Shown here: in pieces, positions 23,584-61,999 of the stretch
Layout: each line of letters starts with the position of its first letter
Numbering within the stretch: position 1 is the stretch's first letter
Source: an uncultured archaeon
Lineage (GTDB): Archaea; Thermoproteota; Nitrososphaeria_A; Caldarchaeales; Wolframiiraptoraceae
Direction of reading: 5' to 3'
NCBI GenBank assembly: GCA_938083505.1
Contig: CALKCF010000007.1
Span: 96,001 to 160,000 of the forward strand
DNA: 64,000 bases
Translations under genes and position numbers: made by a program
The notes under the pieces: model-generated
Databases searched by the model: none
Seen by the model: the letters and a program-made list of their open reading frames with translations, nothing else
What the model was told of the DNA's origin: nothing

Positions 23584-24514
23584 CTTCTTTTACTATCTTT
23601 GCTATAAAGAACCCCTCAGCTTCATGTTCATATGGATAAACTCTTACACATCGTTCGAGCTCAGGGTTGTACTTATTGTGTTGCCATTCCAGAAGTCCTT
23701 TGTTTATTTTTAACCCCTCAAGTCGTATGTTCTCTAAGCGCGCATTAGGTTTATTTGCAAGAAGACGATCTATGACCCATTCGTTCTCCTGCGGGCTGAG
23801 CGTGCATGTGGCGTAGATCATTATGCCACCAACCTTCAAACATTCAAAGCCAGAGATAGCTAGGCTGAGCTGAAGTTTAGACAATCGCTCGGAAGTCCGA
23901 AAGCTCCATTTTTTTGCAGCACTCCAATCTTTGCTTACTATACCGAGTGATGTACACGGCGCGTCAACAAGAACTTTGTCAAAAAATCCTTTGGCCCATA
24001 ATGGAAATTTCCTACCATCGACCTGCGTGATAATACAGTTTATAACCCCGCACCTTTGAACATTAGAAGAGAGCGCCCTTATCCTCTTAATGTTCACATC
24101 ATTTGCGACTATTACACCCTCTCCTTGTAAAGCTTGTGCTATCTGTGTAGTTTTGCTACCTGGAGCGGCACAAAGGTCTAGAACGAGTTCACCAGGTTTA
24201 GGTGATAGTACCTCAACCGGAGCCATGGATACTGCGCCTTGAATGTATATTAGACCAAGCATATGCTCGAGCGTGTTTGAGACATTAACGTCGTTTACGA
24301 CCCAATACCCATATCTTGCCCAAGGTATCTTTTTAAGCTCTATACTCCTTTCTCTTAGCATGCTTAGCACATACTCCTCTCTGGCCTTTAATGTGTTGAT
24401 TCTAATGGATTGTCGTATCGGTTTTTGATAACTTTCTAGCAAACTTTTAACATCTATATCCGGTATGCTGTACAAAAGGTTTCTGAGGTCCTCACTTATA
24501 TTAATGGTGCTCAA
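23573..24514 (-). CDS. NOL1/NOP2/RsmF-family RNA m5C methyltransferase
   Basis: RINTLK, DLCAAPGSKTTQ, LVDAPCTS, YATCTL..QENE. Confidence 0.93.
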   Translation of the reverse strand: MSTINISEDLRNLLYSIPDIDVKSLLESYQKPIRQSIRINTLKAREEYVLSMLRERSIELKKIPWARYGYWVVNDVNVSNTLEHMLGLIYIQGAVSMAPVEVLSPKPGELVLDLCAAPGSKTTQIAQALQGEGVIVANDVNIKRIRALSSNVQRCGVINCIITQVDGRKFPLWAKGFFDKVLVDAPCTSLGIVSKDWSAAKKWSFRTSERLSKLQLSLAISGFECLKVGGIMIYATCTLSPQENEWVIDRLLANKPNARLENIRLEGLKINKGLLEWQHNKYNPELERCVRVYPYEHEAEGFFIAKIVKEGDS

Positions 24515-57996: not shown

Positions 57997-58167
57997 TTAA
58001 ATCGTCTGGAGAGCTAGGGCTACAAATCTTACTATAAAAGCGATCGCACCTAACACAATTATGCCCAGAAACGTGATTTTTAAAGCTATCATAAACTCGG
58101 TCCTACTAGGCTTCTTCGCCACCTTCATGAGTGTCTTTACGGATTTAAAGAACTCGATAAGCTTCAT
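57997..58167 (-). CDS. secE: Protein translocase subunit SecE/Sec61-gamma
   Basis: Manual translation (not in track): MKLIEFFKSVKTLMKVAKKPSRTEFMIALKITFLGIIVLGAIAFIVRFVALALQTI; KKP..EF motif plus TM helix; canonical position before spt5. Confidence 0.92.
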   Translation of the reverse strand: MKLIEFFKSVKTLMKVAKKPSRTEFMIALKITFLGIIVLGAIAFIVRFVALALQTI

Positions 58168-58721
58168 GTTTTTTCGCTAAACTTTTCTTTCGTGTATGAT
58201 ATATCTTTTTTCTTAAAGGATTTTCCCGCCTCATAAAGATAGAGTTTATGTAACCTTCCATCCTCTGTGGAGACCTTGCTCGCCACGATTAAAGGTTGCC
58301 ATTCTAGAACCGGAAAGTCATGGGTGATGAGTTTCGTCCCAGGTTTAGTATAGAACTCGAGTCTTGGTTTTAGAATTTTCAAAGCGTCAGGGGTCAGATA
58401 CAACGTTATAACATCCGCCGAGCTGACGTCAAACTTGAATAGATCCCCCCTTATTATTCTGAAGTTTTTGATACCTTTTTCTAGCAGCTTATTATAGGCA
58501 TAGCTCGCCAGATTAGGGTTGGACTCCACACCTATAACGGAACACCCATAGTTACTGGCCGCCTCTACCAATATTCTCCCATCTCCACAGCCTAGGTCGA
58601 CGAGTAGTTGCCCTTCTCTCGGCTCTACAAGATCTAGCATCAGCTTGACCGTGTCAATCGGTGACGGATAGAAGGGTATCTTCGGAGAATAGTGCTTTCT
58701 TAAAATGTATGGATACGACAT
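58164..58721 (-). CDS. Class I SAM methyltransferase (aKMT/FAM173-like protein-lysine MTase)
   Basis: PFYPSP..V..ML, DLGCGDGRI, DVITLYL, THDF. Confidence 0.8.
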   Translation of the reverse strand: MSYPYILRKHYSPKIPFYPSPIDTVKLMLDLVEPREGQLLVDLGCGDGRILVEAASNYGCSVIGVESNPNLASYAYNKLLEKGIKNFRIIRGDLFKFDVSSADVITLYLTPDALKILKPRLEFYTKPGTKLITHDFPVLEWQPLIVASKVSTEDGRLHKLYLYEAGKSFKKKDISYTKEKFSEKT

Positions 58722-58753: not shown

Positions 58754-59686
58754 TTAAAATTTTCTTCCATCCTGAAGTAAGTACAATAGTAAAGCAGCCT
58801 CGGTATGCAGCCTGTTAGCAGCCTGTTGCCAAACCATGGATTTCTTGCCATCGATCACGGATGCCTCCACTTCTTCTTCCCTATGCGCTGGTAAACAATG
58901 CATGAATATCGCGTCAGGTTTTGCTAAGGACATCAACTTCTCTGTTACCTTGTATCTCGGATAAAAAACCTTCAACCTCTTCTCCCTTTCTTCCTCCTGA
59001 CCCATGGAAACAAAAACGTCTGTGTAGACAACGTCGGCATCCCTTACAGCCTCTTCTGGATTTTCTGTCAACTCTATTGAACTCCCAGACATCCTCATCC
59101 ACTCCTTCGCTTGTGTTATCACGTTTTTTGGTGGCTGATATTCCTTAGGTGATGCCACCGAAATTCTGGCACCAAGTAGTGAACATGCTTGGATGAGAGA
59201 ATTACAAACATTGTTTCCGTCACCGATGTAGGCAACTTTTACCCCTTGGATGCTACCCTTTAGCTCCTTGATCGTCATCATATCAGCAAGTCCTTGGCAA
59301 GGATGAAATCTATCACTTAAGGCGTTGATTATCGGTACCGAGCTGTATCTTGCCATCTCAGAAAGCGTCTCATGCTTACAGACTCTTGCAACGATGGCGT
59401 CCACGTAAGCCGACAGCGCGTGTGCGGTATCACTCAACGGCTCTCCTCTGCTCACTTGCATCTCGCTAACACTGAGCGGAACGCTTTCACCACCAAGCCT
59501 TGCTATCGCTACTTGAAAGGATACTCTGGTTCTAGTAGACGGTTTTTCGAAAATCAAAGCTACGGACTTGCCGGATAGTGGTTTATTATCGGGATATCCT
59601 TTCTTCTTAAAATTTATAGCCATGTCTATTATGCGTAGTATTTCTTCTGCGGTATATCCTTCAAAATCTAAGAAGTGTCTAACCAT
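58754..59686 (-). CDS. argF: Ornithine carbamoyltransferase
   Basis: FEKPSTRTR, HPCQ, GDGNN, TDVFVSMG, HCLPA. Confidence 0.96.
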   Translation of the reverse strand: MVRHFLDFEGYTAEEILRIIDMAINFKKKGYPDNKPLSGKSVALIFEKPSTRTRVSFQVAIARLGGESVPLSVSEMQVSRGEPLSDTAHALSAYVDAIVARVCKHETLSEMARYSSVPIINALSDRFHPCQGLADMMTIKELKGSIQGVKVAYIGDGNNVCNSLIQACSLLGARISVASPKEYQPPKNVITQAKEWMRMSGSSIELTENPEEAVRDADVVYTDVFVSMGQEEEREKRLKVFYPRYKVTEKLMSLAKPDAIFMHCLPAHREEEVEASVIDGKKSMVWQQAANRLHTEAALLLYLLQDGRKF

Positions 59687-59823
59687 GTCAAAACCGTATT
59701 ACAAATAAATATTTAAGCGTACTAACTTGTGAAGCAATGGTAACCTTTATCTTAACTATCACCTATAACGTGACGTAGTCTAGGGGGGCGGTTTTCATAT
59801 TCTTTGACGAAGAAGGAGAGGCG

Positions 59824-61632
59824 TTGGATAAAATACTGGAAGCGTTAGCCTCACCTATAAGGATTGAGATGCTGAAACAACTCTCTAAACATGATATGAA
59901 CTACACGGAATTGATACGCTCAGTGGGCATGAATCCTCAGAAAGATGCAGGAAAGTTCTCTTACCACTTGAAGAAGCTTCTCAGCTCTAAGCTCATAAGA
60001 ATTAATGAGAAGACGAAACTTTATGAGCTTTCTCATAGCGGTAGGGCAATGCTTGATGTAATTGAACAGGCAATAAGGAAGCTAGCAGGCTCGGACTTAC
60101 TGATTGTCAGACGTAGCGAGTGCTCGATAGAACCCTTTGATAAGAATAAGATAGTGAACGCTTTGGTCAAGGAAGCTGGCATGCCAGCAAAACTTGCCCA
60201 TAAAGTCGCATCCATCGTGGAAGAAAAGCTTCTTGACCTTAAAATAGAGTACCTATCCGCACCCTTGATTAGGGAAATTGTAAACTCCATTTTGATAGAC
60301 CAAGGGTTAGAAAAGTACAGACATAAGCTTACAAGGGTTGGCATGCCCATTTATGATGTCGCTCAGACGATCAAGAACGCTTCAAAGCAAGGTGGAACCA
60401 CCGCTATCATGAAGTCTGCGGCAAATTCGGTTTTGAAGGAGTACGTGCTACTTAACGTGCTGCCAAGAAACGTAGCTGACGCTTATCTCTCCGGAATGGT
60501 AGACATTTGCTTTCTGGAATCATGGGTTACGTCAATTTATGGTAAGGCATACGATATACGTACACTAAATGATGCTGAGGGCGCAGATATGCGCGAGGCA
60601 CTCATAATGAATTTCATGAGAGATGTGTTTGCTGTTGAAAAAGAATTTCTTCTTTACAATCTTAACGACGTTATGGCGAACAAAAAATTATTAAAACAAC
60701 TTGTATCGGCACTCGTAAAAACTTCATCCCTAAGTATGTTTGAGGACCCTAAGTTTGTGCTTAACGTTGTCGAGAACTCGGAATGTGTAGAAGATTTTAT
60801 AGAGAGTTTTGACAAGTATCAAAAGGATAACATCTCAATTGTATTAAGTAAAGATTTGATTGAGAGAATGTCCACACGTTACATTTCCAAAGAGGGGCTC
60901 GAATTAATATTCTCAAGATGTCCCAAATCAGAGATTTTAACGAGCGATGGATACAAAATCTCCATTAAGGATGCAGAAAATACCGAAAGCTTTCTATGTG
61001 GTGTGGCCGTGTTGAATATGCCAAGGTTGGCACTGCAGTCTGCGGGCAACGAGGAAGAATTTATGGAGTCCGTGAGAAGAACTATGCAGTTTATTATAAC
61101 AGCCTTTATAAAGAAGATGAACCTGACAGACGTGCTTTATGGGGACGTAAACATAAAACACCAATTTATAGTATCACCATGCGGCATGTTCGAGGCGATA
61201 AAATGCTTAACGGGAAAATATCCGACCAACGAATCTTCCGATATTTTGTTAAATGTGTTGAGGGAAATGGTTAAGCTGACGTTGAAGAGCTCTAAAAAGA
61301 ACTTCCAAACAGGGGTCGCTAATGTCTGTCCCCCACAATCCTCTAAGAGGATGACCAAGTCTGATATAGAGAGGTTTGGCTTCAAAACGATATCGAGCCT
61401 ATCCTTCCATGCAATGACATCTAACTTTGCCTATTCGACAACCATCGTGCCCCATGACGCGAAAATGCCGCAGGAAGATAGGCTACAGCTTGAGGTAAAA
61501 GTCGCCAACGTTTTGAACGGTGGTTATATGGTAATGCTGTCTAAACCTTCGAAGGACAAGGAAGCACAAGAAACCATCAACATTATCAAGAGGTACTTAG
61601 AAGCCGGCTGCGATTCCCTAAAATTCATTTAG
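59824..61632 (+). CDS. ArsR-like wHTH + ATP-cone + degenerate class III ribonucleotide reductase (NrdD-like) fusion
   Basis: ALASPIRIEML...YHLKKL wHTH; VRRS...EPFDKNKI...L.APLIREIVN ATP cone; NrdD remnants LTRVGMPIYDV, LNMPRLA, LNGG; no glycyl-radical loop. Confidence 0.8.
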   Translation: MDKILEALASPIRIEMLKQLSKHDMNYTELIRSVGMNPQKDAGKFSYHLKKLLSSKLIRINEKTKLYELSHSGRAMLDVIEQAIRKLAGSDLLIVRRSECSIEPFDKNKIVNALVKEAGMPAKLAHKVASIVEEKLLDLKIEYLSAPLIREIVNSILIDQGLEKYRHKLTRVGMPIYDVAQTIKNASKQGGTTAIMKSAANSVLKEYVLLNVLPRNVADAYLSGMVDICFLESWVTSIYGKAYDIRTLNDAEGADMREALIMNFMRDVFAVEKEFLLYNLNDVMANKKLLKQLVSALVKTSSLSMFEDPKFVLNVVENSECVEDFIESFDKYQKDNISIVLSKDLIERMSTRYISKEGLELIFSRCPKSEILTSDGYKISIKDAENTESFLCGVAVLNMPRLALQSAGNEEEFMESVRRTMQFIITAFIKKMNLTDVLYGDVNIKHQFIVSPCGMFEAIKCLTGKYPTNESSDILLNVLREMVKLTLKSSKKNFQTGVANVCPPQSSKRMTKSDIERFGFKTISSLSFHAMTSNFAYSTTIVPHDAKMPQEDRLQLEVKVANVLNGGYMVMLSKPSKDKEAQETINIIKRYLEAGCDSLKFI

Positions 61633-61999
61633 ACTTTAGCAAAAGAATTGCCTTTGCTAAATCTCCGCCTACTTCTATGAGTGTCCTCTTTGCCTCCTCC
61701 TCAGACACACCTGCCTGGAGCGCCACGATGGCTATGTCGTCTGGCGACGGTTCGTAGACTGGAGCTTTTTCTTCACTTACTGTAACTTTCTGCTCAGAAA
61801 CCTCGCCACCTATGATCTGATAGACCTTTTCTCCACCAACTTGTAAAATCACGACGGTGGGCTCTTTTATTACTATGTCCCTATCCGGCAGACGAAGCAC
61901 AACCTCCTTAGCAACGTTTTGCTCTGTAACATCAAGACCCAAACTACTAAGTAGCTTTGATTGTATCCTTCTAAGTTCGCGCGAGCTCAACTTTCTCAT
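61625..61999 (-). CDS. nac: Nascent polypeptide-associated complex protein
   Basis: EVVL..PD..IVI..P.V...VYQI.G NAC domain and UBA domain ..QAGVSEEEA...GDLAKAIL. Confidence 0.9.
   Translation of the reverse strand: MRKLSSRELRRIQSKLLSSLGLDVTEQNVAKEVVLRLPDRDIVIKEPTVVILQVGGEKVYQIIGGEVSEQKVTVSEEKAPVYEPSPDDIAIVALQAGVSEEEAKRTLIEVGGDLAKAILLLKSK

Follow-up and report, generated by a model that had tools for sequence, protein, structure and literature searches.

The window analysed here is a stretch of 64,000 nucleotides (nt) from an uncultured hot-spring archaeon of the Caldarchaeales (family Wolframiiraptoraceae; positions 96,001 to 160,000 of contig CALKCF010000007.1, assembly GCA_938083505.1), and it carries on its forward strand, at 59824..61632, a gene for a protein of 602 amino acids (aa) in which a winged helix-turn-helix (wHTH) domain, an ATP-cone and a barrel resembling NrdD, the class III ribonucleotide reductase (RNR), follow one another. 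A preliminary description, made from the nucleotide letters, had proposed this order, with a shortened and dead NrdD barrel at the end; Pfam domains confirm it, and the peptides quoted at the time (LTRVGMPIYDV, AYLSGMVDI, SDGYK, LNMPRLA, SKRMTKSDIERFG and LNGG) are all present in the translation. The wHTH (residues 1-88; 59824..60087, + strand) passes the gathering score of the DUF7347 winged helix (PF24038) over residues 4-80, with 38.4 bits against a cut-off of 27.6, and its recognition helix occupies residues 41-52, around DAGKFSYHLKKL. The domain had been called ArsR-like, of which the winged helix stands and the ArsR membership does not: ArsR-type models match the first 60-85 residues, all under cut-off (HTH_5, PF01022, 19.1 bits vs 22; the ArsR/SmtB model NF033788 of NCBIfam, 29.8 vs 55), and a family profile finds the ArsR/SmtB proteins NolR, NmtR and HlyU in the PDB at an expectation value (E) of about 2e-4. 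By these scores the likeness to ArsR/SmtB is remote only, and the domain's own family is DUF7347. The ATP-cone (residues 92-170; 60097..60333, +) scores 34.8 bits against 25.8 with PF03477 over residues 95-165 and is a variant, with VRRS instead of the usual V-x-K-R-D-G. After a linker and the first core helices (residues 170-211; 60331..60456, +), the NrdD-like alpha/beta barrel (residues 171-602; 60334..61629, +), devoid of catalytic residues, ends the protein at its last strand; NRDD (PF13597) covers residues 309-593 with profile positions 203-495 of 562 (55.8 bits vs 26.2), and the NrdD equivalog cut-off of TIGR02487 is not reached (60.2 bits vs 326; NCBIfam).

The frame of 602 codons is free of internal stops and runs from a TTG at 59824, the earliest ATG, GTG or TTG downstream of the preceding stop, to a stop at 61630-61632, with GGAG at 59815-59818, 6-9 nt 5' of the start. 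Within the genus the start codon varies, being CTG in one genome and CTT in another, where a TTG stands four codons downstream, and which codon serves as start in some relatives is uncertain. Translation must begin close to 59824, because the conserved residues S10, P11 and R13 precede the next ATG (Met16).

The radical chemistry of class III RNRs depends on residues that are well defined. Their finger loop reads M(G/C)CR and carries the thiyl-radical cysteine, and a cysteine on strand beta-A is conserved in 92.6% of the enzymes (PMC9669993); HxHD is the NrdD motif that binds the substrate by its triphosphate, and NxN forms a flap that closes over it (PMC11226230). We built a family profile from 45 members, which matches solved NrdD structures with E from 3.5e-35 (9d3x) to 4e-22, and aligned it to the NrdD of T. 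maritima (TmNrdD). The finger-loop C-C-R of TmNrdD falls on G376-Y377-K378 (60949..60957, +; in the sequence S-D-G-Y-K), so that the thiyl-radical cysteine corresponds to Tyr377, in keeping with the earlier reading of SDGYK in place of GCR. In alignments to TmNrdD and to a Bathyarchaeia NrdD the beta-A cysteine column holds Gly240, and across the family Cys is not among the eight commonest residues of this column, which cover 137 of 150 members. A remnant of the AHxxG-IHIHD motif (60493..60513, +) keeps G224 and reads V-D-I-C at HxHD, the NxN flap reads N-A-S, and both motifs are degenerate throughout the family; LNMPRLA (61012..61032, +) is the retained NxPR motif, with N398 invariant in the family. 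The protein ends just before the CxxC...CxxC ribbon of its relatives and of true NrdDs, and both the C-terminal Cys4 Zn ribbon and the glycyl-radical motif R-V/I-x-G-Y are absent, which agrees with the stop before the Zn-binding CxxC and the RxxGY loop recorded earlier. Nor does the gene continue past its stop, because a convergent gene for the nascent polypeptide-associated complex (NAC; 61625..61999, -) overlaps the stop by 8 nt, again as had been noted. As judged from the alignment, the body is shown to lack every residue needed for glycyl-radical ribonucleotide reduction.

The genome, of 1.15 Mb and 98.5% complete, has its working RNR elsewhere, a class II, B12-dependent NrdJ of 883 aa, uninterrupted and with its own ATP-cone, encoded on contig C1 (the gene under study lies on C7). 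No second NRDD match was found in the genome, and no match to the activase NrdG reaches cut-off anywhere in it (TIGR02495, 58.9 vs 131; TIGR02491, 32.1 vs 126), the best matches being generic radical SAM proteins; the absence of nrdG, first remarked on for the neighbourhood, thus extends to the genome. A split gene with a separate glycyl-loop protein was also considered and rejected, the genome search giving weak CxxC matches, none of which spans the RVTGY part. Complementation by such a protein together with NrdG had been named beforehand as an observation that would speak against a dead enzyme, and neither partner was found.

The AlphaFold2 model, based on a 150-sequence alignment, has a mean predicted local distance difference test score (pLDDT) of 91.6 and a predicted template-modelling score of 0.79, and it shows the wHTH, a cone of four helices and a barrel in which the finger-loop position (370-380) is still a beta-hairpin. 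All top Foldseek matches are class III RNRs, with E from 6e-19 to 5e-12 and template-modelling (TM) scores of about 0.5-0.6, followed by class I and II RNRs at about 1e-8. A superposition on NrdD had been suggested as a check, and the structural matches return the NrdD fold. When modelled as a homodimer, residues 170-602 give a symmetric pair with a score of 0.66, compared to 0.00 for the best of three controls. Of proteins solved as pairs of one chain, 20 of 30 reach this mark, against one of 23 that were solved as single chains; the runs share at least 96% of contacts, and pLDDT is at least 84. Helices 170-211, which occupy the dimerisation region of NrdD, lie at the centre of the predicted interface. 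As NrdD dimers have been solved, the homodimer score may reflect likeness to them rather than binding.

The protein belongs to a large archaeal family. A sequence search gave about 140 clusters (50% identity) with E <1e-30, and relatives were matched in at least 590 species-representative genomes of Nitrososphaeria/Caldarchaeales, Bathyarchaeia and Nezhaarchaeales; among the matches listed, the closest named ones are from Candidatus (Ca.) Terraquivivens yellowstonensis (80%) and Ca. T. tikiterensis (72%), which we take to be thermophilic Caldarchaeales of the family Wolframiiraptoraceae. Short forms of the family (535-650 aa) are without the ribbon, and long forms (700-770 aa) keep the Zn ribbon and not the glycine. 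In an alignment of 150 members, R[VIT]xG[YF] is missing from 149, the thiyl column holds Cys in ten and L, Y, F, S, I, V or T in the other 140, and no wHTH-bearing member keeps both the glycyl motif and the thiyl cysteine. Orthologues retaining GCR and RxxGY, which the preliminary description had set out as the case against its own proposal, are thus not what the family presents. In the same alignment G43, H48, Y67 and G73 of the wHTH are invariant and F45 and Y47 nearly so; the cone has V95, I110, E117 and R150 invariant and R96, E103, F105 and K/R109 nearly invariant, the linker R171, G173, P175 and D178 nearly invariant, and the barrel G224 invariant besides N398. Presumably R96, E103, K/R109 and I110 correspond to the ligand residues of ATP-cones in RNR structures. 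Column information is highest in the cone (2.95), followed by the wHTH (2.34), residues 171-250 (2.15) and the rest of the barrel (1.2-1.4).

The ratio of non-synonymous to synonymous substitution rates (dN/dS), a check proposed earlier and run here on seven genomes of the genus, is 0.093 overall, with 0.043 for the wHTH, 0.019 for the cone (the lowest of the protein) and 0.09-0.18 for the barrel; for comparison, nrdJ gives 0.037, pyrB 0.051 and argF 0.057. These values are rough because dS, at 1.3-1.5, is near saturation, but the direction is clear: all parts of the protein are under purifying selection and are not decaying. The unbroken frame had been held to argue against decay, and that argument gains from the low dN/dS and from the presence of the gene, usually in one copy, in 40 of the 41 genomes sampled from the order.

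With respect to origin, true NrdDs among the search results match from the cone onward only, without a wHTH. The nearest true enzyme seen, from Bathyarchaeia (L079:8771-11002; 516 bits with TIGR02487), has a QCCA finger loop, the beta-A cysteine, the ribbon and RVTGY, and it has the same unusual cone and linker as the present protein (VRRS, PLIRE.VN and YR..LTRVG.P.YD; 33% identity over 177 aa, E 2e-22). In a quick maximum-likelihood tree, which included the wHTH columns and was rooted, by our choice, on five true NrdDs, all dead forms fall in one clade (Shimodaira-Hasegawa-like approximate likelihood ratio test, 99), and the ribbon-less short forms make up a single nested clade (99) whose nearest relatives are ribbon-bearing forms of 620-706 aa. 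Judged by sequence, the dead family is a paralogue of the true archaeal NrdD lineage with the same unusual cone. Its likely history is a duplication of an archaeal nrdD, followed by gain of the wHTH, loss of the chemistry and, later, loss of the C-terminal radical domain, the final loss of the whole of this domain having likely taken place in the lineage that includes this gene. One protein of 627 aa (P0254), at the base of the dead clade, consists of cone and barrel without a wHTH and has its radical glycine replaced, reading SRSIAFYG where true NrdDs have SRVTGYYQ; from its sequence it may be an intermediate in which the chemistry was lost before the DNA-binding domain was gained.

We propose, with a probability of roughly 0.55, that the gene encodes a putative non-catalytic, dimeric DNA-binding regulator that senses adenine nucleotides. 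Two copies would pair via the old NrdD dimer helices (residues ~170-211), as in the predicted dimer, bringing two winged helices to face DNA; the cones would read ATP versus dATP, by analogy with RNRs and with NrdR, the bacterial RNR-specific repressor, and respond by altering the assembly or the way in which the DNA-binding heads are positioned; and the barrel would be a lever and scaffold rather than a second pocket for ligand. The preliminary description had the RNR scaffold serving for oligomerisation or for sensing of deoxynucleotides (dNTPs). Oligomerisation is consistent with the predicted NrdD-type homodimer; the old active site is an unlikely place for dNTP sensing, given that HxHD, NxN and the two cysteines have degenerated throughout the family, and it was set aside as a second nucleotide sensor.

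Several observations weigh against the proposal of a nucleotide-sensing regulator. Leaving aside its N-terminal helices, conservation in the predicted dimer interface does not exceed that of the remaining barrel. In the phosphate site of the cone, Thr takes the place of the second basic residue in 81 of the 150 members, and the choice of ligand could therefore differ from ATP/dATP. The upstream neighbour in most Wolframiiraptoraceae genera is Spt5 or an IF-2B-family gene, not a metabolic one, so that synteny in this family is uninformative on targets. Finally, no operator stood clearly above shuffled controls when inverted repeats and Gibbs sampling were applied, with methods that are weak, to the upstream regions of the gene itself, nrdJ and pyrB in 7-9 genera (nine for nrdJ). 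Exact inverted repeats (half-sites of 4-6, spacers of 0-16), counted per genus, reached maxima of 2-3 genera, equal to the shuffled controls, and Gibbs sampling (width 14, one sequence per genus) gave an information content of 14.5 for nrdJ, within a null range of 12.8-15.1 and with sites that are mostly ribosome-binding sites, 16.1 for the gene's own upstream region (null maximum 15.7; not convincing) and 15.7 for pyrB (null maximum 14.9; T-rich sites, also not convincing). An alignment of the three upstream regions from seven genomes of the genus showed promoter-like blocks, none of them common to all three, and inspection by eye of Bathyarchaeia pyrB-pyrI intergenic regions and of regions upstream of family genes found only blocks resembling TATA and B recognition elements.

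Among known systems NrdR is the closest in outline. It joins a Zn ribbon to an ATP-cone (TIGR00244; PMC9110341), so that in both proteins a DNA-binding domain is fused to a cone, and the expected logic would be alike, an ATP/dATP-dependent change of oligomer controlling DNA binding. The differences are substantial: the DNA-binding domain here is a winged helix, a dead NrdD barrel of 430 aa follows the cone, the cone descends from archaeal NrdD and not from NrdR, and the genome gives no match to TIGR00244. NrdR has paired operator boxes upstream of RNR genes; in the nrdJ upstream regions of nine genera the weak methods used here brought no shared or dyad motif above shuffled controls. The protein may thus work like NrdR in outline while failing NrdR membership, and relative to NrdR the term 'independently evolved', used in the preliminary description, holds. 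To NrdD (TIGR02487/PF13597) it is alike in fold, the ten-stranded RNR/glycyl-radical barrel (Foldseek TM 0.52-0.57; the 9d3x profile match), in the motifs NxPR, R..D..FG, Y(S/T) and GG and, as far as the model goes, in the dimer interface; it differs in the added N-terminal wHTH and in everything that catalysis requires, and is a NrdD homologue that fails every catalytic membership test. A further analogy is offered by NrtR, the Nudix-related transcriptional regulators, in which an enzyme-family domain is reused as the effector of a DNA-binding regulator of nucleotide-related metabolism and the proteins are commonly annotated as enzymes, as here (PMC2330246); NrtR is bacterial, with an N-terminal Nudix-like domain, and as folds and lineages are unrelated the parallel is one of analogy only. 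Recent RNR papers describe the ATP-cone as limited to RNRs and NrdR, and class the class III enzymes by MGCR or MCCR finger loops with no mention of dead forms. Our full-text searches gave no paper describing the present architecture; most subscription journals lay outside their coverage, and novelty is not proven.

What such a regulator would control is a matter on which we can offer only a tentative joint reading, one that we regard as possible but less than probable: the family could be the missing master regulator by which TACK and related archaea govern their nucleotide supply, in which the RNR-derived cone would read the ATP/dATP ratio, the use of carbamoyl phosphate (pyrBI, argF) would be coordinated with dNTP synthesis (nrdD, nrdJ), and the dead barrel would pass the signal of the cone to the DNA-binding heads via the old dimer interface. 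To our knowledge, the control of DNA-precursor genes in archaea is largely unknown. In this genome, synteny makes the divergent argF and the promoter of the gene itself the best candidate targets, and for other lineages it favours pyrBI; nrdJ could also be a target but is unsupported here.

Narrower versions of the regulator have points on both sides. One would make the protein an archaeal functional analogue of NrdR, which in its dATP-bound state would sit on the nrdJ promoter and on its own and repress nrdJ; we consider this unlikely. The genome has no NrdR of its own, and its only two ATP-cones are in this gene and in NrdJ. The family is paralogous to a NrdD that in turn adjoins a family member at six of the 50 Bathyarchaeia loci with enough flanking sequence, a glutaredoxin gene lying between the two in four of them. 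Upstream of nrdJ, moreover, a block of 28 nt (AAGGTCTAACAAAGTGTAGTTGGAGGTC; contig C1, ~23600-23653) is almost invariant in seven genomes of the genus, located between a TATA-like GGTTTTTATT and the nrdJ start codon. This block could be a conserved leader only or a regulatory site; it includes the ribosome-binding site GGAGGT and may reflect no more than close kinship within the genus. Against such an analogue, nrdJ is unlinked to the gene, no motif common to their promoters rose above shuffled controls, and adjacency to an RNR gene is much rarer than adjacency to pyrB. Because no operator was found, an RNR-specific version has only analogy and a minority of the loci in its favour. Of the NrdR analogue put forward in the preliminary description, the wHTH-cone architecture and the lack of a genomic NrdR hold up, and the tie to RNR regulation finds no support here; likewise, the search for the real RNR and for upstream motifs shared with it yielded the RNR and no shared motif.

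Alternatively, the protein could act at the carbamoyl-phosphate branch point, sensing purine nucleotide status and controlling pyrBI (pyrimidine) and/or argF (arginine). The conserved neighbours of the family are indeed far more often carbamoyltransferase genes than RNR genes. In 39 of the 50 Bathyarchaeia loci the next gene downstream is a convergent pyrB, adjoined by pyrI, and the genus studied here, Caldarchaeum and a small number of others have a true argF directly upstream and divergent, across a short common intergenic region of 137 bp here and 78 bp in Caldarchaeum. Even so, convergent genes share no promoter, the Bathyarchaeia loci are kin and therefore cannot be counted as independent events, the pyrBI of this genome lies elsewhere (C4:48245), most Wolframiiraptoraceae genera are without the argF neighbour, and no common motif was found, so that we look on a branch-point role with considerable doubt.

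A non-transcriptional role appears improbable, whether as a DNA-bound or protein-level modulator that, for example, tethers or allosterically controls NrdJ or replication proteins, or as a nucleoid-associated protein whose abundance follows ATP. The failure to find an operator would suit it, as would the information-processing genes that flank the gene across the order, Spt5-L11-L1-L10 on the divergent side and NAC-PUA-HflX on the convergent side. On the other hand, no protein partner is in evidence, and the recognition helix shows almost no variation between Bathyarchaeia and Caldarchaeales, which suggests a specific, conserved nucleic-acid target. That the protein is still an enzyme, be it an anaerobic RNR or another glycyl-radical or nucleotide-transforming enzyme, is scarcely credible: the NRDD gathering score is passed, N398, R509, D514, Y537 and G566-G567 stay conserved, and orthologues at 77-81% identity carry the public name 'anaerobic ribonucleoside-triphosphate reductase' (the mis-annotation that had been suspected from the outset), but TIGR02487 is missed by a wide margin, the catalytic columns vary freely across the family, and the thiyl and beta-A cysteines, HxHD, the Zn ribbon, the glycyl loop and, in the genome, NrdG or a separate glycyl-loop protein are all missing.

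Returning to the non-catalytic DNA-binding regulator that we favour, the gene, near-universal and single-copy in its order, falls into a third class of ATP-cone proteins, a widespread one, in which a whole catalytic subunit of RNR has become a pseudoenzyme joined to a DNA-binding domain. Should this reading be true, it would provide a testable entry into archaeal nucleotide homeostasis and a clear case of an enzyme converted to a regulator. Meanwhile, the label 'anaerobic ribonucleoside-triphosphate reductase' can mislead inference of metabolism and oxygen lifestyle for uncultured archaea, this relative of Ca. Terraquivivens being an example.

The divergent neighbour of the gene in the window is argF (58754..59686, -), an ornithine carbamoyltransferase gene by NF001986 (424 bits vs a cut-off of 306). 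The intergenic region common to the two genes (59687..59823) contains several blocks conserved in the genus: ATATTTAA (59709-59716, -) is probably the TATA element of argF and TAACCTTTATCTTAAC (59742-59757) probably that of the present gene, and GGGGGGCGG (59783-59791), CATATT (59796-59801) and the GGAG close to the start codon are three further blocks. Between the Spt5 cluster and argF lies an open reading frame of 185 aa (58164-58721, -), conserved in the genus, which scores 89.9 bits with the archaeal protein-lysine N-methyltransferase model NF041081, below its cut-off of 200. About 130 nt upstream of pyrB, on contig C4, stands another genus-conserved block, GGATTTATCCTAAACGACAA, which holds the near-palindrome GGATTTATCC and could be the promoter of a divergent gene or a binding site. 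In Bathyarchaeia, for example at six of the loci, the family gene is directly preceded by a tRNA gene on the other strand, and the resulting order of tRNA, dead NrdD, pyrB and pyrI is conserved in many members of that group.

Two observations concern the RNRs and ATP-cones of the relatives. In four genomes there are frames of 711-728 aa whose match to NrdJ is confined to its ATP-cone part, at 35-49% identity, and which represent a further ATP-cone protein of some relatives, which the dead-NrdD query missed and of which an ATP-cone search found no equivalent in the window's own genome. In six others, the nrdJ matches are split into two to three pieces inside single frames of 1268-1736 aa, a pattern suggesting that the class II RNR of several relatives contains inteins.

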